Source: a virus
Lineage: Duplodnaviria > Heunggongvirae > Uroviricota > Caudoviricetes
IMG/VR virus record: IMGVR_UViG_2721755643_000001
Direction: 5' to 3' (one strand)
Length of the DNA: 42,956 nucleotides
The notes under the pieces are model-generated. The model was not told where the DNA came from and ran no database searches. It was given only the letters and a program-made list of their open reading frames with translations. This document shows, in pieces, positions 3,722 to 33,695 of the stretch. Numbering within the stretch: position 1 is the first letter of the stretch; the number at the start of each line of letters is the position of its first letter. The position numbers were made by a program, and so were the translations under genes.

Positions 3722-3825
3722 GTCATATCTCTGCAATATGACCGCCAGTAAATATACAGAATACTGGCGGGTGTGGTTGATTTTTAATAATCAGCTATGA
3801 AGTTCTAATCTGGATATAATGAAAT

Positions 3826-4014
3826 TCACGAGGACTGAAGTTTCTCGCAATTAAAATTTATCAGTTTTACTTTCTGCTCTCTGGAAACGCCTGCTTCTTT
3901 TTCCCCTGAGAGCATTTTTTCGCATTCTGATTTCGTTAGTTTTGTCTTTGAGTATCTTGTCCAGCTGGCAGGAGATCCACCTTCCTTTTCAATAGTGGCT
4001 GTAATTTTATACAT
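3826..4014 (-). CDS. Hypothetical small phage protein
   Basis: Track ORF 3826..4038; internal start at MYKITAT has a strong GGAGGTG Shine-Dalgarno 5 nt upstream. Confidence 0.5.
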   Translation of the reverse strand: MYKITATIEKEGGSPASWTRYSKTKLTKSECEKMLSGEKEAGVSREQKVKLINFNCEKLQSS

Positions 4015-4064
4015 GAACACCTCCATTAATATTTTCAAAAACCGTGTCCAAAATGCACTTGGTT

Positions 4065-5162
4065 TTACACCGGAATATTCTCATCGTATCCTGCTTGTTG
4101 CGTTTCGTTTTGTGTTTGTGGATCCGGGAATGCATATTCAACGCCTTCCAGTTCAATCCATAGTGCATTACGACCAGCTTTGATTGTCGGCCAGTCCATA
4201 CCTTTGATTCTTTCCCATGAGCGGGAGGTGAATGTTTTTTCCAGCAAATCAGCTTTTGCGCGTTTGGCGTCGTTACTGGTGCCCCCATGGTGCTTGTTGA
4301 GCAACTCGATAATTTCATCAAGTGCGATTTCTTTTGCACGCTTTTCTTTTAGCCATGTCGGTGTACCGTCGTTGGCAAATAATTCACTGTTATCCCGTGA
4401 GGTATCGATGCCGAGGTGTTCACCTCCCAGGTTAAGAAACTCGATATGAGGAAGAAAGTTTTTAAATGTTGGGTTTGAAAATACCTGTCCATCAATACGG
4501 GTGGAGCGATCTTTTAGTATTCTGGCGGTGCGCCACACCTGACCGGTTTCTATGTTCATTTGCTTCTCCATCTGGATCAGGATGGAGGGTTCATAACCGG
4601 TTTCTGTTTCTGCTTTCATTTTTATACCGGTTTTTGCCAACTGGCGTTTGCCATCATCACCTTCGAAAAAGTCATACTCATATCCTGCACGCCCGCACAT
4701 AATAATGTGCGCCTGACTGTTAACAAATCGATCGGTAAAGCGTCGCCACTCCTGTTTGAGCCACGCCCAGTCTGAAAATTCCAGTCCTCGTTTACGGTTT
4801 CGGCGTCTGGCATACTCGTCGCATAATCCGGTCCAGAAGTGACTGATGGAGTCGATGATCATTACGGAACCGCTGCTTTCCGCTTCATTAATGGCTTCAA
4901 GCAGATCAACAAACGAGCGGGTTTTTGCCGTAAATAATTCGATATTTTCCGCATCAAAGCGGGGTTTAACCCAGTCAGAGCCTGTTTCTGTGTCCAGAAA
5001 CATTACCGGGCGGTTACCAGCTTCAATTCCCCGTTGCCGCATAAGCATTACCAGACCAATAGCCAGTTCGCTTGCTGTGTAGGTTTTGCCGTCGCCAGCA
5101 AACCCCATAATTCCTGCTTTTAGATAGGCCTGTGTGTTTATTGCTCGTTGAAAAAGCGCCAT
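4065..5162 (-). CDS. RecA-superfamily ATPase (Sak4-like recombination protein, tentative)
   Basis: Walker A GFAGDGKT and RecA-type Walker B VMIIDSISHF; 365 aa; sits in the early-left recombination-gene position. Confidence 0.7.
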   Translation of the reverse strand: MALFQRAINTQAYLKAGIMGFAGDGKTYTASELAIGLVMLMRQRGIEAGNRPVMFLDTETGSDWVKPRFDAENIELFTAKTRSFVDLLEAINEAESSGSVMIIDSISHFWTGLCDEYARRRNRKRGLEFSDWAWLKQEWRRFTDRFVNSQAHIIMCGRAGYEYDFFEGDDGKRQLAKTGIKMKAETETGYEPSILIQMEKQMNIETGQVWRTARILKDRSTRIDGQVFSNPTFKNFLPHIEFLNLGGEHLGIDTSRDNSELFANDGTPTWLKEKRAKEIALDEIIELLNKHHGGTSNDAKRAKADLLEKTFTSRSWERIKGMDWPTIKAGRNALWIELEGVEYAFPDPQTQNETQQAGYDENIPV

Positions 5163-5167
5163 AGATT

Positions 5168-5467
5168 TTAGTCCTCCAAATCAATATCAACCTGGTGGTG
5201 GGCAATGGTTTCAGCCATGTACCGGATGTGTTCTGCCATGCGCTCCTGAAACTCAACATCATCATCAAATGCGTGGCTGATTGCCTGTTTATTGGCACCG
5301 TGGCGTTGCAAATGGTCGATGCAGAGCGATTCAAACAGGTGCTGAGGCAGACCTTTTTCCAGGTCGTCCGCCAGTTCCGTTTCTTTTTCTTCACGAACGA
5401 TCTGCTGGTAGTGGCGAGCCCATGCCATTTCTTCAATACGATCAAAAATCGGGTAAGCGCTCATCAC
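5168..5467 (-). CDS. Hypothetical acidic phage protein
   Basis: 99-aa ORF tightly packed in the leftward operon; overlaps the upstream gene stop by 26 nt. Confidence 0.55.
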
Positions 5468-7382
5468 TGGTCACTCCAAAATTTTCAAGCTTGTTGGCAA
5501 TCATCATTGCGATGTCAGGGATTGCAGGCGCATAGGCTATGCACGCAGGATTCGCACATAAACCGTAAACCGCCGCAATCAACACCTGTTTTTTCCAGTT
5601 GAGTTCATCTTCGCCAGTTTCATTATTGCTATCATTATGCTGATCGCTGCCAGCGTTCTCCGGTAACAAATCATCAGCTTTTTCCGTTTTCTTCGGCTCT
5701 TCTTCCTGTGCTTCATCTGGTTTTTTTTCGTCAAAAGTTTCCTGATAAGTTGCGTCTCCCATCACCGCGCCACAGTCAGGGCAGTTATCCTCGCCAGTCT
5801 GATTGCAGGGTGTTCCCTCCTCCGGTTCGCTGTTCTGGTGCTGTTTATCTTCAGTCTGTCGCACTTCATTTTCCGTTTTTTTGACTTCATTTGAGGAGAT
5901 ATGATGACCGGGAATCCATTTCGGATCATTCGGGTCGCTAATCCCTTCAACAAATTCTCCGCGAGAGGCAGCCAGTAATTTGTCTGCATCGACAGGATTT
6001 TTGGGCGGAATGTTTTTCCGGGCTTCATGGAGTTCTGCCCGCAGTTCCTGATATTTCGCATCAACAGCATTTACCTGTGACTGAGCATCCAGCGGCTGCG
6101 TGTCCTGATGATGTTCAGTTGCATCCGGTTCCACTGTTTCAGCCGTTGCCTGTTCATCTGCCATTGCGCAAGATGGTTGCGGTTTTTCTTCATCATCCTG
6201 TTTTCCTTCTTCTGTTACACGCTGCGGCATCGGGGCAGAGGAGCGACCGCAGGCAATATCCACGATTTCCGGATCAGGGTTGGCATGATCGGTTTCAGTC
6301 AGTACCTTGTTCAGATATTCAGTGACGTGCGCGGGGATGACCTCGATCCCAATTGGTGCTTCTTTTACGGACGCAACCACGATGGCGCGGGAATAATCCA
6401 GCCCGCCAGGCATGGTGATGAATTTGTCGCGGAAAACAGAAAAGGGCGGTTTATTTTCAGCGATAATTTCCTCAATGCGTTTAGCGTGTGCCGGATGAAG
6501 GTTATAGATGTCCAGATCCATTGAACGGGCCAGTACGCCAGTGGCTACGTCGCGCGCCAGTGACGTCAGATCGTGTACGAAACCTTCGCCGCGATCGGTG
6601 AGGTTTCCGCCGCCAGCATTAGCACCGGAAGCCGTGCGAGTGATGTGTGAAACACGATTACCCTTCATCCACTCTTTTGTCAGCAGTCCTCGATCGGTGT
6701 AGTCAGCGTTCAGGTATGCTTCGAAAAAAGCAGTTATCAGTCCCAGGCTTGAATTACCAGGATTAGGGAAAACTTTGTCAGTGTCACGAACCAGTTTGTG
6801 GAGATCGCGAATTTCCAGCGGGTCGAGCAGGCTGGTTTTGTGGGAAACAGCCAGGGCAGTAACAGCCGGTAGTTCTTCAGCCCGAGCAATGTGTAATGCC
6901 TGGAGTCCGTCGCGTGAAACGTGCGTTACCGGTTTTTCGCTGCCGTGTTGAGCAAGCCAGCGAATGGGCAGTTCCTGACCGGAAACTGGCAGGAGCATGT
7001 TCTCCTCAATTTCTGTCATGTCTTCGCCGTTGACGTTGGTATTGTCAGTGCTGGCTGGTTTGTCCTGAACAGAGGGAGAAGATGCGATAAATACCATTGT
7101 GATGCCATCTTCCCCGCCTTTTTCGTAACGGTTGCAGAATTCCGTATCAAACACGCCTTCTGGCGGGAGGTCATCAACAACGGGCAAATTGACGTGAACA
7201 GGTTTTTTAAAGTCATCTTCATCGTAGCCTGCATCGTCAATCGCAACAGCACCACGGGAGATGGCAATGGATAATTTTTTCGCTTCAGCCCAGTAAAAAC
7301 CGCCTTTAATACCGAGGCGTTTTCTTACTTTGTCATTTTTTGCTTCGTAATACAGTGGGTAAACTTGTTTATCGGTGCTCAT
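5442..7382 (-). CDS. Large hypothetical early protein with acidic low-complexity C-terminal third
   Basis: 646-aa ORF; C-terminal region rich in D/E/Q/K/T/P (e.g. [33 protein letters not shown]); no motif I can assign. Confidence 0.8.
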
Positions 7383-7405
7383 TGTTTTTTAACCTCAACT
7401 CATAT

Positions 7406-7702
7406 TCAGATTGCATAAAAGAAACGAACTGATGATGCGATATGAGAGAGTTCTTTCAGTCGTTGATAACTGATACCGTATTTCTTGTCAGCCTCTTCAA
7501 TGCGAGCTGTGAGTAATGCAATTTCTTTAATGGCACATACACAACAATCAAATGTTCTCAGGACGTAACAGCCATCAATAATTACCGTGACGTTTTCTTT
7601 TTGGGAAATCTGAATGAAACTATGTAATGTATTCCCACATTTAAATTCGGCGAGAGAATCGTTAATAACATCAAGTTCAATTTCACATTCAATAATACTC
7701 AT
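7406..7702 (-). CDS. Hypothetical small phage protein
   Basis: Track ORF 7406..7750; start placed at Met17 (MSIIECEIELD) by arithmetic on the track frame; start choice uncertain. Confidence 0.5.
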   Translation of the reverse strand: MSIIECEIELDVINDSLAEFKCGNTLHSFIQISQKENVTVIIDGCYVLRTFDCCVCAIKEIALLTARIEEADKKYGISYQRLKELSHIASSVRFFYAI

Positions 7703-7776
7703 TGCTGTTTCCTTTTTTAAGGTTGAGTGAATCCCTGCCATTGCTGGCATAAATTCAGTTTCGAATATTCAGTTAA

Positions 7777-8058
7777 TTAAAGTTCGTGTGCCATCTGGTC
7801 TTTTTCGGCACAGATTTCACTACAATATTTGCGTTTCTTTTTCCTCATCATGGTTCCGTGCATGTAAATAAGTTCAGCAGTGTAAGCCTTATCAGGGCTT
7901 ACTTGTCTGTCACACAGGCCATAAGCACAGGGAATTAAATCGGGATCACCTTTCTGCTGGAGGGTTTTTTTGATTATCCATAACAATTTTTTGATTCCGG
8001 TGTGTGTTATGGTCTGCTGAGGTGCAGAGGTAAAACAATAATCAAGCATAGGGTTCAT
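7777..8058 (-). CDS. Hypothetical small Cys-containing phage protein
   Basis: 93 aa with spaced cysteines (CAYGLCD...YCSEIC), possible zinc ribbon; 16-nt gap to the next gene. Confidence 0.55.
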   Translation of the reverse strand: MNPMLDYCFTSAPQQTITHTGIKKLLWIIKKTLQQKGDPDLIPCAYGLCDRQVSPDKAYTAELIYMHGTMMRKKKRKYCSEICAEKDQMAHEL

Positions 8059-9689: not shown

Positions 9690-9750
9690 ATACAATCTAC
9701 AAATTAAAATTTAATTGGTCAATATATTTATTATTAAATTTGTAATTGCG
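9690..9750. promoter_or_regulatory. OL-like operator / leftward early promoter region
   Basis: AT-rich; the 15-mer ATTAAATTTGTAATT (9733-9747) recurs exactly at 10975-10989 in the repressor-cro intergenic region; inverted TACAAAT / ATTTGTA half-sites. Confidence 0.5.
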
Positions 9751-9790
9751 AACGATTGCATTAGTCCCAAAATGGGACTATCATGCAGTT

Positions 9791-10093
9791 ATGAAGATCA
9801 TCTCAGTTAAAACACTCAGGGATTTTTGGGCGGAGAATCCCGATGCAGAACAACCGCTAAGGGCATGGGTGGATGAGGCAGCAAAAGCTGACTGGAAAAG
9901 CCCGGCAGACATTAAGGCACAATACCGAACGGCTAGTATATTGAAAAGCCGGCGTGTGGTATTCAACATAAAAGGTAATCATTACCGTTTAATTGTTGCA
10001 ATTGCGTATCAGCGAGGATGGGTATTTGTTAAATTCATCGGAAGCCACAAGGAATACGATGCCATTGATGCTGATACCATCGAACTGGAGTAA
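9791..10093 (+). CDS. higB: Type II toxin, HigB/RelE-like mRNA interferase
   Basis: About 100 aa, MKIISVKTLRDFW...YRLIVAIAYQRGWVFVKFIGSHKEYD resembles HigB; toxin-first order, 2-nt gap to an HTH antitoxin. Confidence 0.75.
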   Translation: MKIISVKTLRDFWAENPDAEQPLRAWVDEAAKADWKSPADIKAQYRTASILKSRRVVFNIKGNHYRLIVAIAYQRGWVFVKFIGSHKEYDAIDADTIELE

Positions 10094-10095
10094 GC

Positions 10096-10455
10096 ATGAA
10101 CATCAAACCTATTCGTACAGAGCAAGATTATGAAGCCGCGTTGCGTGCTGTTGAGCCTATGTTCGACAATGAACCGGAAATTAACACGCCTGAGGGGGAT
10201 TTCTTTGAGGTGATGTGTTTGCTAATAGAGGAATATGAAAAAAAACATTATCCCATTGAGCCACCATCCCCAATTGAAGCTATAAGATTTCGCATGGAAC
10301 AGCAGGGGCTGACCGTGAAAGATTTGGAACCCGCAATTGGGAAAAAAAATCGGGTTTACGAGGTGTTGAATGGCACCAGAAGCCTTACGTTACCAATGAT
10401 TCGCCGTCTTCATAATCAATTTGGTATCCCCTTGGAAAGCTTGGTGGGATTATAA
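10096..10455 (+). CDS. higA: Type II antitoxin, HigA-like (XRE-type HTH)
   Basis: 119 aa immediately downstream of the toxin; C-terminal HTH-like segment GLTVKDLEPAIGKKNRVYEVLNG. Confidence 0.75.
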   Translation: MNIKPIRTEQDYEAALRAVEPMFDNEPEINTPEGDFFEVMCLLIEEYEKKHYPIEPPSPIEAIRFRMEQQGLTVKDLEPAIGKKNRVYEVLNGTRSLTLPMIRRLHNQFGIPLESLVGL

Positions 10456-13975: not shown

Positions 13976-14488
13976 ATGGAGACCGTTTTTGACGCACTGA
14001 AAGCAATGGGAAAAGCCTCTTCACAGGAAGTTGCAGCACGCCTGGGCATGACCCGGGATGAAGCAATCAACGAGCTGTGGAAACTGAAGCGTCGGGGTGA
14101 GGCAGACAACAAAGGCCCGATGTGGTGGCTGACATCCGGCGATGAGGAAAAACAGGCCGGGTATCGTGAAACCCCCGTTGTGGATTTAATCCCACAGAGA
14201 GGGACTGAGAGTGAAAAAACAGCCAGACAGGAAGCGTCCGGAACAGAAAACACGGGTCAGCATGCAGATGTGACAGAAGTTGTTCAGCCAATCCCTGCGT
14301 TTACTGAAAAACAGCAGGATTATGTGATTCTGCCATCACTGCATGCGGCAAACCGTGAGCTGCGCCGGGCAAAAGGTCAGGTCCAGAAGTGGGAGCGTAT
14401 CTGCGCCGCGCTACGGGAGCTGAATAAACACCGGGACGTTGTCCGGCAGATTGTCGACTCTTCCCGCCGTGTTGCATCGGAAAAGTGA
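13976..14488 (+). CDS. Hypothetical protein
   Basis: Start at internal ATG of track ORF 13910..14488 with a GGGAGA Shine-Dalgarno; 170 aa. Confidence 0.55.
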   Translation: METVFDALKAMGKASSQEVAARLGMTRDEAINELWKLKRRGEADNKGPMWWLTSGDEEKQAGYRETPVVDLIPQRGTESEKTARQEASGTENTGQHADVTEVVQPIPAFTEKQQDYVILPSLHAANRELRRAKGQVQKWERICAALRELNKHRDVVRQIVDSSRRVASEK

Positions 14489-18883: not shown

Positions 18884-18960
18884 GGCCCTTTAGCTCAGTT
18901 GGTCAGAGCGAGCGACTCATAATCGCCAGGTCGCTGGTTCAAGTCCAGCAAGGGCCACCA
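18884..18960 (+). tRNA. tRNA with CAT anticodon (Ile2-like, ileX/ileZ type)
   Basis: Cloverleaf with 7-bp acceptor GGCCCTT/AAGGGCC, anticodon loop CTCATAA, T-arm GCTGG-TTCAAGT-CCAGC, encoded CCA; close to my recollection of E. coli ileX. Confidence 0.8.
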
Positions 18961-18961
18961 A

Positions 18962-19038
18962 CCACCACTAGCTCATCCGGATAGAGCATCAACCTTCTAA
19001 GTTGACGGTGCGAGGTTCGAGTCCTCGGTGGTGGGCCA
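18962..19038 (+). tRNA. tRNA-Arg (anticodon TCT)
   Basis: Acceptor CCACCAC/GTGGTGG, D-arm GCTC...GAGC, anticodon stem TCAAC/GTTGA with loop CTTCTAA, T-arm CGAGG-TTCGAGT-CCTCG, encoded CCA. Confidence 0.85.
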
Positions 19039-19040
19039 GC

Positions 19041-19116
<76 letters not shown>

Positions 19117-19119
19117 TAT

Positions 19120-19191
<72 letters not shown>

Positions 19192-30487: not shown

Positions 30488-30849
30488 ACTTTCACGGTAT
30501 TGTTTCCGGCGCAGTACGTCGGGTAAATCCCTTTACAGACGCGCTGGTTTATCGTTCCCGCGGGAGTACACAGCAGGCAGATTATTCCCGCGTACCTGAG
30601 TATGAAGATCCGGTTTCCGTCAGGGTGCAAAAGCAGGCTGTCACCCAGGCTGATTTACGTCATCTTGATAATCTTAACCAGCAGGGAGTTTTCGCCACAT
30701 TGTATACCGATGGTAACTGGTGCGGGCTTAACCGTGCCCGGCAACAGGGAGGCGATAAATTTGTTATTGGCGATGAAACGTGGCTGGTGATTGAGGTACC
30801 GGAAATCTGGCCTGACTGGACGAGGGTTATTGTATGCCTTCAGGTGTGA
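30484..30849 (+). CDS. Hypothetical tail-associated protein
   Basis: 121-aa ORF overlapping its neighbours. Confidence 0.5.
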   Translation: MNFHGIVSGAVRRVNPFTDALVYRSRGSTQQADYSRVPEYEDPVSVRVQKQAVTQADLRHLDNLNQQGVFATLYTDGNWCGLNRARQQGGDKFVIGDETWLVIEVPEIWPDWTRVIVCLQV

Positions 30850-31379
30850 CCCTCTCCGTTACGGAAAGCGCTCTTTATCAGGCCCTCGGTGATTATCTCC
30901 GGGGGCTTTTTTCTGATGCCGGGATTGAACGAACGCAGCAGAACCAGGTCCCGATGCCTCAGGGGAATTTCATCACCATGACGGGCATTGATGTTACCGG
31001 ATTATCCACTGCGGTAGTGGCATATTCTGCGCCAGCGCAGGCTGGTGAGGGCTCTCAGCATATCACCCGTACCACAAAATGGCGTTGCCAGCTTGATTTC
31101 TACGGCCCTCACGCGGCAGATAACGCGCAGGTGCTGGCAACGCTTTTCCGGTCTGAATTTTCCGTACGGCTTTTCCGGCAGGGCGGTGGGCTGATTTCCC
31201 CGCTGTATTGCTCAGAGCCCTTTAACACCACATTCCCCAACGGTCAGCAACAGTATGAACCGCGCTGGACGCTTGATATTCAGATGCAGATTAACCCTGT
31301 GGTCACAACTTCCCTGATGTTTTTTGACAACGTGATCACCCGGACAACGGAGGCTGATAATGCCAATTCCACTCAGTAA
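30834..31379 (+). CDS. Hypothetical tail-associated protein
   Basis: 181-aa ORF immediately before the sheath-like gene. Confidence 0.5.
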
Positions 31380-32844
31380 AGATGTACAGATAAATCCCGG
31401 TGTGCTGGCTGTGGCGGGTAATGCCGTCGATCTTAACGGCCTGCTGTTGACCAGTAATCCGTTACTTCCGGTCGGCACTGTGGTTCCGTTTTCCTCTCCG
31501 GATGATGTGGCCGCGTATTTTGGTGCATTATCCGATGAGTACGCACGCGCTCAGCTTTATTTCCAGGGCTTCAAAAATGCCACCAGGACGCCGGGGCAAT
31601 TGTTGTTTTCCCGTTTCAGTCCTGCCCCATCGGCGGCCTGGTTACGTAGCGGTTCGTTTAAGGGCGCGACTGTTGAACAGCTACAAAAACTTTCCGGCAC
31701 GCTGATGCTGAGTATTAACGGGAAAAGCGTCAGCATTGAAGTGAATTTTAACGGTGTCGCCAGCTTCGCCGCTGCTGCAACGGCACTACAGACAGCGCTG
31801 ACCGCAGCAGTGGCTACAGTGGTATTCGATACCACACAGAATGCTTTTGTCATTACTGTCGCCGGGGCGAAACCCGGGAGTACCACGATAACGTTCGGCA
31901 GTGGATCGGCAGCAGAACTCCTGAAGATGACCAGTAACACCGGTGCGGTGATATCCCGGGGCGCGCCTGTATCTGATGTCCCTGACACAATGGCAGCCAT
32001 TAAGGCCGCTTCCCAGCAATGGGCGGGTTTTTCCACGGTATCTGAGGTCACTGACGAGCAACACCTGGCGTTTTCTGCATGGGCAAACGGGCAGGGCAAG
32101 CGTTACTTTTATGTGGCATGGACAACCAGCGGCAACGCCAGAGTAAAAGGCAGTACTGAACACATCGCTTACCAGATAATTGCTGTCAATAACTACAGCT
32201 CTGTTGTACCTGTTTTCGCGACTGATGGTAACCGGGCTGCAGCGGTACTGGGGTATGCAGCGTGCCTTGATTTTGTCCGACCAGAGGGGCGTGTATCATT
32301 CAAGTTCCGCGAGTATGAGGGGCTGGCCGCTGATGTTACCAGTGGCAGCGATTATGATGCGCTGATCGCCGCAGGTTACAATTTCTACGGAAAATATGCG
32401 GAAAACAGTGTGGTGGAAGATTACTGGGCGGATGGCACTATTACCGGTGATTTTAAATGGCTGGACAGTTTCTGCGGGCAAATCTGGCTGAATGCCAGTT
32501 TGCAGGGGGCGGTGATCGCGTTATTCAAGTCAAACCAGACGATCCCCTACAACAATGAAGGGCGGGCGCTGGTTGCAGCGTCAATGAGTGACGTTATCCA
32601 GCAGTACAAACGCTGGGGAGGGATCCGTGAAGGGGTGACACTGACGGAGGCGCAGAAGAAACAGATTAACAATGTTGTGGGGGCAGATGTTTCTTCAACG
32701 TTGTTTGCCACCGGCTATTACCTGTATATCGGCGATATGCTTCCCTCTTTGCGGGCAACCCGTAGCAGTCCGTCCTGTACGCTCTGGTACTGTGACGGCG
32801 GTAGTATCCAGAAACTTGTTATTGCATCCACGGAGGTCCAGTAA
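31360..32844 (+). CDS. Tail sheath protein (tentative)
   Basis: 494 aa, followed by a 148-aa tube-like gene, a frameshifted chaperone pair and the tape measure: the canonical contractile-tail order. Confidence 0.65.
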
Positions 32845-33291
32845 ATGTCGGGTAACAACAACACCATCACTGCGGCGGATGCCATTATCACGCTGACAGT
32901 GAATAATCTGTATCCCTCCGGCGTACGACTTCAGGGATTTGCAACAGATAACGTTTATGGCACCGATCCACTGGTACTGGCGGAAACTGCCCGCGGTATT
33001 GACGGTAAACTGTCCGCGGGATTTGTGTACAGCAACATTATCCAGACGTTTCATATCATGCCGGATTCCCCCAGCCGGGATATTTTTGATACCTGGTCAA
33101 CCACATCCCGGGCCAGTCGGGCTGTATTCCGTTGTAACGCTGTCGTCCTGCTTCCGGCGATTGGCCGTAAATATACCTGCGTGAATGGCGTACTCAAACA
33201 ATGGAAAGCGCTGCCTGATGCAGCTCGTACGTTGCAGCCAGGGCAGGCGGTTATTGAGTGGGAAACCATTACTCCGGAGGTTTTTAACTGA
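32845..33291 (+). CDS. Tail tube protein (tentative)
   Basis: 148 aa directly after the sheath gene. Confidence 0.6.
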   Translation: MSGNNNTITAADAIITLTVNNLYPSGVRLQGFATDNVYGTDPLVLAETARGIDGKLSAGFVYSNIIQTFHIMPDSPSRDIFDTWSTTSRASRAVFRCNAVVLLPAIGRKYTCVNGVLKQWKALPDAARTLQPGQAVIEWETITPEVFN

Positions 33292-33695
33292 TGGCCCGTA
33301 AAGAGAAATTTATCACTATTGAAGGTCAGGGACGGGATAAGGGCAAGGTATTTCATCTTACCGAAATGTCTGCCTCACAGGCGGAATGGTGGGCGATGCG
33401 TGCCATTATGGCAATGGGGCGTGGTGGCGTGGAGTTACCGGATGATGTTCGTAGTCTGGGGATGGCTGCGCTTGCCCTTGAAGGGCTGAAAGCATTATCG
33501 AAAATTCCGCCTGATGAGGCGCGTCCGTTGATGGATGAAATGATGGACTGTGTGCAGTTTGTTCCCGATCCGAAAAAACGCAGCATCCGGAGACCGCTTG
33601 TTGAAGAGGATATTGAAGAAATCATTACCCGTCTTAATCTGCGTGCGGAGGTCTTTAAGCTGCATGTGGATTTTTTCGCTACCGTCGTCAGCTAG
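33291..33695 (+). CDS. Tail assembly chaperone (short form)
   Basis: 134 aa upstream of the tape measure; contains slippery heptamer TTTTTTC near its 3' end. Confidence 0.7.
   Translation: MARKEKFITIEGQGRDKGKVFHLTEMSASQAEWWAMRAIMAMGRGGVELPDDVRSLGMAALALEGLKALSKIPPDEARPLMDEMMDCVQFVPDPKKRSIRRPLVEEDIEEIITRLNLRAEVFKLHVDFFATVVS

Follow-up and report, generated by a model that had tools for sequence, protein, structure and literature searches.

A nuclease-less RecE-family protein beside Gam and a long AAA_24 ATPase in the early-left operon of a Rac-like lambdoid prophage

RecE and RecT are the workhorse pair of recombineering, yet what the ~600 N-terminal residues of RecE do has been a puzzle for decades. 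Here we analyse a 42,956-nucleotide stretch of viral DNA (IMG/VR record IMGVR_UViG_2721755643_000001; below, the window), whose early-left operon, at positions 4,065 to 8,058, encodes a 646-residue RecE-family protein that has this N-terminal region and no nuclease domain, next to Gam and a RecA-fold ATPase of the AAA_24 family. We refer to the protein and its family as RecE-N, and to the members that end in the same short C-terminal segment as the tail class. The window is 100% identical to a prophage of Escherichia coli RMDEC364, where it adjoins gyrA-yfaA-yfaT. We hold with moderate confidence that the block is the distal part of the early-left operon of a Rac-like lambdoid prophage of E. 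coli and Shigella beside yfaA/yfaT, that it was built by cassette exchange from three sources, that its ATPase is a phage recombinase and that the 646-residue protein is functional. In outline this is an ordinary lambdoid module for recombination and the control of host nucleases, in which Gam is paired with a candidate for a non-orthologous recombinase. Two of its components are uncharacterised variants, a long Sak4-related ATPase and a nuclease-less RecE class, the latter being the more interesting.

In the Rac prophage, RecE (exonuclease VIII, 866 residues) matches the equivalog model NF007259 and combines the family domain PF06630 with a PD-(D/E)XK nuclease (PF12684; residues ~600-866); its gene comes after ydaE and a small gene and has recT downstream. 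According to a 2023 review, the function of the RecE N-terminal domain is unknown, the nuclease domain is sufficient in genetic terms, and linear-linear recombination is more efficient with the full-length protein (PMC11611040); whole-word searches found no newer literature on the N-terminal region. RacC, encoded just upstream of recE in Rac, blocks the retron toxin RcaT, and it is the RecE nuclease that triggers this retron (bioRxiv 10.1101/2020.06.22.160242). In phage lambda, gam comes after kil and is followed by bet and exo. The AAA_24 family includes a proven annealase, Sak4 (PMC5928155, PMC2896510), which in phage HK620 is a core-only protein of 25.6 kDa paired with Abc2, and Sak4 genes usually (~80%) adjoin ssb (PMC5928155).

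Operon layout and cassette exchange

The operon runs, in order, Rha, five open reading frames (ORFs), a DUF1187/RcbA-like gene, xis and int. The five ORFs all lie on the minus strand (Table 1), and the spacing between them, 5, -26, 23 and 26 nt, makes them one operon. An earlier note on this DNA had listed these ORFs with coordinates and lengths that the ORF listing reproduces exactly, and its placement of the block at the position of lambda exo-bet-gam was borne out. The note went on to call the encoded proteins unassignable and to describe a phage without lambda gam. For three of the five the first statement fails, as the 99-residue protein is Gam, the 93-residue protein belongs to the YdaE family and the 646-residue protein to the RecE family; the second is wrong, since the 99-residue ORF is gam itself. 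Profile searches of all five thus assigned three of them beyond what the note had said, and the block did not resolve into known recombination proteins without unexplained domains. It does contain real unknowns, as the note had said; they are the RecE N-terminal region (PMC11611040), the protein of phrog_2434 and the C-terminal domain of the ATPase.

Pairwise blastn shows where the operon was assembled. Window positions 5166-7412, which cover gam and the 646-residue gene, share 88% identity with L002, an E. coli prophage with gam-bet-exo-ralR, and positions 3776-4037, over the DUF1187 gene, have 92% nucleotide identity to both Rac and L002. Between these shared segments the window has the ATPase gene and L002 has bet, exo and part of ralR, while window positions 4171-5162 have 77% nucleotide identity to the AAA gene of the Cronobacter phage phiES15 (85% at the protein level). 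Since the flanks match L002 and the ATPase gene matches phiES15, a cassette holding the ATPase gene has taken the place of Bet and Exo, and its breakpoints fall at gene boundaries. Three sources would account for the whole: a Rac-type backbone that supplied Rha, the YdaE zinc protein, a small Cys-rich protein and the RecE N-terminal region; a unit of tail-class RecE-N and gam, which precedes bet-exo in other E. coli prophages and is more diverged in Shigella Stx phages; and a phiES15-type AAA_24 gene, which would have displaced bet-exo-ralR from the stretch that runs from the gam stop codon to rcbA.

Two comparisons bracket this arrangement. In phiES15 (kil-gam-AAA-102 aa-Dam-xis-int), gam likewise lies directly upstream of an AAA_24 gene, but there is no RecE-N gene upstream of it and its gam has no detectable nucleotide similarity to that of the window, and the small gene and methylase that follow the phiES15 ATPase are missing from the window. 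In Shigella Stx phage 75/02 (gp06) and in E. coli (WP_073972150), a nuclease-less RecE-family protein has the same tail and its gene end overlaps the gam start, as here, but Bet and lambda Exo follow there, whereas the ATPase replaces both in the window.

The nuclease-less RecE-family protein

The 646-residue protein matches PF06630 (E 6e-38, 131 bits), phrog_607 over positions 1-622 of 883 and the RecE equivalog NF007259 over positions 1-596 of 877, the last with 1070 bits, under the cutoff of 1269. Its alignment with Rac RecE (residues 101-591) is collinear to residue ~591, where the nuclease domain of Rac RecE begins, and then gives way to 55 unrelated residues; a Pfam scan for PF12684 found no nuclease domain. 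In the core (residues 225-400) dN against Rac RecE is 0. The two genes also share their place in the operon, after ydaE and a small gene. They differ in that a conserved helical tail of 55 residues takes the place of the nuclease in the window protein, that one zinc-ribbon cysteine is lost, that the score falls below the equivalog cutoff, and that gam and the AAA_24 ATPase gene, not recT, lie downstream.

Rates of substitution, calculated by the Nei-Gojobori method between the window gene and its counterpart in Shigella Stx phage 75/02, show purifying selection on the folded parts and the tail. The dN/dS ratio is 0.11 for residues 1-100 (dS 1.16), 0.11 for the core (dS 0.73), 0.08 for residues 441-490 (dS 0.77) and 0.16 for the tail, residues 592-646 (dS 1.09). 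The acidic linkers behave differently, with 1.04 for residues 401-440 (dS 0.40) and 0.41 for residues 553-591, where dS, at 2.27, is saturated; against the closer L002 gene both linkers give 1.4-1.5. No such ratio has meaning between the tail and the start of the Rac nuclease, which are not homologous.

An AlphaFold model of RecE-N built from 59 family members (mean pLDDT 75.7) contains two confident N-terminal domains (Table 1), a conserved helix pair at residues 437-473 and two tail helices at 596-610 and 615-634 (pLDDT 65-80), separated by acidic linkers (398-434 and 493-591) of low confidence that are presumably disordered. No solved structure matched the folded domains, and the model suggests an orphan fold. 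The earlier note had pointed to an acidic C-terminal stretch, which is real (residues 390-595 are 26% D+E and mostly of low confidence in the model, presumably disordered), and had proposed that the protein could be a DNA mimic. That idea does not fare well, as the acidic low-complexity stretches are the least constrained parts of the protein (dN/dS ~1) and are largely of low confidence in the model.

The tail is the best-conserved element across 20 tail-class representatives, which share ~25% overall identity; the consensus reads LTYxQQLTIAALQGLCANPAYxGxxDD[IL]PxMAxxLA, and six of its residues (A, A, G, C, N and P) never vary. It corresponds to the C-terminus of phrog_26058 and has no Pfam match. 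A search of phages by tblastn returned nothing, probably through low-complexity masking, and a tail profile run against a set of 5.8 billion proteins retrieved short fragments of the same genes only, with no stand-alone form or other architecture. The end of the tail (DERLPDF in the window, DDEYMPNF in L002) resembles the C-terminus of E. coli SSB (single-stranded DNA-binding protein; DDDIPF), but we rejected SSB mimicry as a general feature, since the 75/02 protein ends in ENFGGDKS and others differ again; a beta-clamp-binding motif (QQLTIA, QLxLxL-like) is left as speculation, the segment being predicted to be helical. In place of the nuclease domain, the tail might mediate oligomerisation or the docking of a partner.

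The same tail ends a 657-residue protein upstream of gam-bet-exo in other E. coli and the 682-residue gp06 of phage 75/02, the architecture also being present in Stx phage POCJ13. This distribution and the purifying selection together make the 646-residue protein a functional stand-alone protein and not a broken recE. Among complete E. coli genomes the arrangement is rare, the junction of tail and gam occurring in 23 of 5426.

How the wider family ends its proteins gives this some perspective. An exhaustive search with residues 200-490 among 1.84 billion proteins gave only 147 representatives (50%-identity clusters), so the family is narrow. We sorted the C-termini of the 72 representatives that carry the core and are at least 450 residues long. 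The conserved tail, with 21, is the most diverse class; 16 have the PD-(D/E)XK RecE nuclease, 13 a DnaQ-like 3'-5' exonuclease (PF16473), eight a shared C-terminus of the "RLRRL" type and 13 some other C-terminus, and one is a direct fusion to RecT. In this last protein (P0241, 703 aa) the RecE N-terminal region runs straight into the RecT domain (PF03837) with no nuclease between, and it may be a real gene or a deletion artefact.

Gene contexts are equally varied. In a scan for the tail motif through GTDB species genomes (seven loci) and IMG/VR (80 loci), a tail ORF was present at 86 of the 87 loci. Downstream of it came gam-bet-exo at 36 loci, intact, and at a few more in partial form, gam-AAA_24 at six, and one or two small ORFs followed by xis/int at ~35, the last group being divergent and derived from Citrobacter, Lelliottia, Buttiauxella, Cedecea and metagenomes. 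Upstream of tail-class genes, small Cys-pair proteins fill the YdaE position. The conserved unit is therefore one or more small Cys-rich proteins plus RecE-N, and its link to recombinases is facultative.

Gam, the AAA_24 ATPase and the weight of the alternatives

By sequence the 99-residue protein is a lambda-type Gam. Residues 2-98 match positions 1-97 of the 98 in PF06064 (E 8e-56, 186.8 bits against a cutoff of 25), the match to phrog_259 has an E-value of 5.5e-54, and the gene has 87.5% nucleotide identity to lambda gam. Like lambda Gam, the protein is ~98 residues long, stands at the head of the recombination genes and is acidic, as the earlier note had it (pI 4.74, 23% D+E). The setting differs, with the gam start overlapping the end of the RecE-family gene where lambda gam comes after kil, and the AAA_24 ATPase gene following where lambda has bet-exo. 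After induction, Gam would block RecBCD, presumably by DNA mimicry as its strong homology to lambda Gam suggests, and linear phage DNA would survive.

The 365-residue protein had been described as RecA/Sak4-like, and both profile and predicted fold agree that it is a RecA-fold ATPase of the AAA_24 family (PF13479, 52.5 bits against a cutoff of 27). Its best PHROG is phrog_1366 (E 1e-79), which has no assigned function; the Sak4-like phrog_124 matches in part (E 1e-8, residues 9-167). In an AlphaFold (AF2) model built from 34 homologues (mean pLDDT 84.8), a RecA-like core of residues ~1-230 is followed by confident extra helices at 233-339, and a Foldseek search of the PDB finds KaiC, RecA, Rad51 and its paralogues, and RadA (E 5e-8 to 1e-6, over ~230 columns), with the C-terminal region outside the matches; a family profile search of PDB sequences matched no chain. 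Walker A (GxxGxGKT, G20-T27) and Walker B (hhhhD, D104) are invariant in the 34 homologues, which are 60-88% identical and come from Enterobacteria, Pseudomonas and Burkholderiales. The family as a whole has more than 2000 homologues at 60-75% identity, from Enterobacteria to Pseudomonas, Achromobacter, Roseateles and Aquabacterium, of constant length (355-376 residues, ~365), and all contexts examined place the gene upstream of int, within the early-left region of a prophage. In Achromobacter-type prophages an SSB gene (PF00436) comes directly downstream with no intergenic gap (L095 7122-7583, L096 7122-7577), although none adjoins the ATPase gene in the relatives L006, L097 and L098. Within E. 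coli the ATPase gene is found in nine of 5426 complete genomes at 21 places, up to four per genome, so that strains with the gene carry several related prophages with the module, some of them interrupted by IS1, IS3 or IS600; many database entries for both the ATPase and the 646-residue protein come from Shigella.

Fold, intact ATPase motifs, position and the adjacent SSB gene in relatives are the grounds on which we take the ATPase to be, most likely, a phage recombinase. Standing in place of Bet and Exo, it would probably anneal single strands in an ATP-dependent manner, as Sak4 does, with the help of host SSB. It shares with HK620 Sak4 the AAA_24 assignment, a RecA-like core with Walker A and B, a place in the recombination slot of a temperate phage and, in some relatives, an ssb gene directly downstream. 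It differs in length and in its extra helical C-terminal region, falls in a separate PHROG, and is paired with Gam, not Abc2, in a window without a phage ssb. Sequence and model suggest a Sak4-related family with an added C-terminal domain, which we do not file as Sak4 proper because the protein is not core-only.

Several observations weigh against the reading given at the outset, and some of them invite other explanations. One is that the 646-residue ORF is a decaying recE remnant, truncated by insertion of the gam cassette, with a tail of read-through junk. RefSeq/PGAP indeed flags the gene as a pseudogene ("incomplete; missing C-terminus"), and the sub-cutoff score against the RecE equivalog fits. 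In the window copy an in-frame 9-nt deletion has removed one CxxC cysteine of the zinc ribbon (CNACGQTG to CNQTG), and segment 491-530 beside the ribbon, ~40 codons, is fast-evolving (dN/dS 0.6-0.8); an IS66-family insertion and pseudogenes in the prophage mean that there may be no viable phage left for the operon to serve. (A frameshift behind the divergence of 491-530 was ruled out, since the alignment shows substitutions and the in-frame 9-nt deletion.) Most tail-class members have no zinc ribbon at all. A remnant, however, is hard to square with a tail whose dN/dS is 0.15-0.16 at dS ~1.1 and in which six residues are invariant across representatives of ~25% identity, with 21 separate 50%-identity clusters of the same architecture, with its annotation as intact in other genomes and Stx phages, or with its occurrence in prophages, those of Citrobacter and Lelliottia among them, that have no gam. 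The remnant is thus very improbable and already largely refuted. The ATPase raises its own doubts. It is not a core-only Sak4, its best PHROG is unannotated, and the window has neither a phage SSB nor a 5'-3' exonuclease, which leaves the source of recombinogenic single strands unexplained. It might instead be a hexameric motor, for instance a helicase or a loader of one, or some other factor driven by ATP, and lie beside gam by chance: KaiC hexamers are its top Foldseek matches and the RadA helicase is among them, relatives in phage records are sometimes labelled replicative helicase, and its ~130-residue C-terminal region is absent from Sak4. We consider this unlikely, because the gene replaces bet-exo exactly, the prophage has separate replication genes elsewhere (for a DnaT-like and a P-like protein), the "helicase" labels are unverified annotations, and both the SSB gene after the ATPase in relatives (PMC5928155) and the membership of a proven annealase in AAA_24 (PMC5928155, PMC2896510) speak for a recombinase.

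The remaining difficulty concerns what RecE-N does. The ~35 divergent xis/int-only loci had no match to Gam, Bet, lambda Exo, RecT or AAA_24 (Erf and other annealase families were outside the search), PHROG scans of the ORFs from two of these loci gave the same pattern, and the DnaQ-fused class also occurs directly before xis-int, after Rha-YdaE-91 aa, without an annealase. That RecE-N can stand before xis-int with none of these recombination genes detected argues that its function need not be recombination at all. It also speaks for the proposal that RecE-N and its small Cys-rich upstream partners form a host-takeover or counter-defence factor, in which the N-terminal domains bind a host or defence target and the variable C-terminus is an exchangeable effector or anchor; the interchange of C-terminal modules, the narrow and fast-diversifying family of 147 representatives, its orphan fold and the presence of RacC in the upstream slot in Rac, blocking the toxin of a retron that the RecE nuclease triggers (bioRxiv 10.1101/2020.06.22.160242), are all in keeping with it. 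Yet an increase in linear-linear recombination is the one phenotype that has been published for the N-terminal region (PMC11611040), in E. coli and Shigella gam and a recombinase nearly always come after the tail class, and none of the five proteins matched a PADLOC model, a weak objection in that the models cover defence systems and not anti-defence proteins; on this evidence we think a counter-defence factor somewhat unlikely. A broader view, tentative and possible though short of probable, is that the folded N-terminal ~400 residues of RecE make up a phage protein in its own right, with an orphan fold, independent of nuclease and phage annealase and fitted with exchangeable C-termini. The tail class would be its natural separation-of-function form and would work with the syntenic small Cys-rich proteins on a host target, such as a complex for defence or for the processing of DNA ends. 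On our main reading, the folded N-terminal domains of the 646-residue protein would carry whatever function full-length RecE adds to its nuclease, one that published work connects with enhanced linear-linear recombination.

Upstream small genes and the rest of the prophage

Table 1. Features of the early-left operon and its right flank, in window coordinates.
Feature	Position	Strand	Basis or remarks
DUF1187/RcbA-like protein	3826..4038	-	PF06688 E 2e-36; K-12 homologue annotated rcbA; right flank of the swapped cassette, shared with Rac
AAA_24 RecA-fold ATPase, 365 aa	4065..5162	-	core residues 1-230 (nt 4473-5162); helical C-terminal region 233-345 (nt 4128-4466)
Lambda-type Gam, 98-99 aa	5168..5467	-	PF06064 full length; phrog_259
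Nuclease-less RecE-family protein, RecE-N tail class, 646 aa	5442..7382	-	PF06630, phrog_607, NF007259
RecE-N residues 592-646, conserved two-helix hydrophobic tail in place of nuclease domain	5445..5609	-	last 26 nt overlap gam start
Degenerate zinc ribbon of RecE-N	5772..5807	-	C526, C534, C537 left; nucleotide alignment with Rac and L002; low pLDDT
RecE-N residues 120-395, confident helical domain with family core 225-400	6198..7025	-	no Pfam model
RecE-N residues 1-100, confident small alpha/beta domain	7083..7382	-	AlphaFold
Cys-rich small protein, phrog_2434, longest ORF, 114 aa	7406..7750	-	
Cys-rich small protein, phrog_2434, probable extent, 98 aa	7406..7702	-	
YdaE-family protein, putative zinc-binding, 93 aa	7777..8058	-	C-terminal 52 aa = YdaE domain with two Cys pairs

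The two small proteins encoded upstream of RecE-N do contain cysteines (6 and 5), as had been remarked. The 93-residue protein is a member of the YdaE family and a predicted zinc protein: it scores 87 bits against NF041288 (YdaE_coli; cutoff 35), is 58% identical to K-12 YdaE over 52 residues, has its paired cysteines at positions 44, 49, 79 and 83, and also matches phrog_6751. The gene order Rha-YdaE-small ORF-RecE-N recurs in the prophage loci L002, L099 and L100. In three divergent prophages (L008 5082-5282, L078 5051-5326 and L060 5681-5986) a small CxxC ORF lies directly upstream of the RecE-N gene and overlaps it, in the YdaE position; phmmer and jackhmmer found no link between these ORFs and YdaE.

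The 114-residue ORF belongs to phrog_2434 (E 9e-39) and had no Pfam, NCBIfam, PADLOC or significant PDB match. Its true start is most likely at 7702, giving 98 residues, because RefSeq places the start at this internal ATG in the identical genome and an AAGGAA ribosome-binding site stands just upstream of it. Homologues precede tail-class RecE-N genes in at least 24 loci, very divergent ones among them. The gene occupies the same slot as racC, immediately upstream of a RecE-family gene, but an identification with RacC was ruled out: there is no sequence similarity (BLASTP E 2.5), and position alone is common to the two. RacC shows that the slot can carry counter-defence functions; that the phrog_2434 gene has the same role does not follow.

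Elsewhere in the window, an IS66-family element (tnpA, tnpB and an ISCro1-type transposase; ~30729-33344) lies within the tail and neck structural genes next to a truncated ORF, a DUF1627 gene has been broken into two pseudogene fragments (~13976-14488), and the prophage is probably defective. On the strand opposite to the early-left operon, between it and the repressor gene, a HigB-family toxin (~100 residues in RefSeq, 115 as the longest ORF) and an HTH antitoxin (119 residues) form what looks like a moron-type toxin-antitoxin pair (9746-10455, plus strand). Four tRNA genes (Ile, Arg, Thr and Val; ~18884-19190 in the identical RefSeq record) lie upstream of the lysis genes. A DUF1175 (yfaT-like) ORF at 1807-2452 ends just before the integrase gene, which suggests that the prophage integrated at the 3' end of yfaT or within it.

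What the locus offers lies in its two variants. The pair of Gam and a long AAA_24 ATPase, which is conserved from Enterobacteria to Burkholderiales, offers an as yet uncharacterised alternative to lambda Red and might be of use as a one-gene recombinase. Genes of the tail class have until now been named "exodeoxyribonuclease VIII" or flagged as pseudogenes, a systematic mis-annotation that can be corrected. More importantly, the RecE N-terminal region is kept under selection as a separate, nuclease-less protein with a tail of its own, and this provides a genetic handle on the function of the RecE N-terminus.

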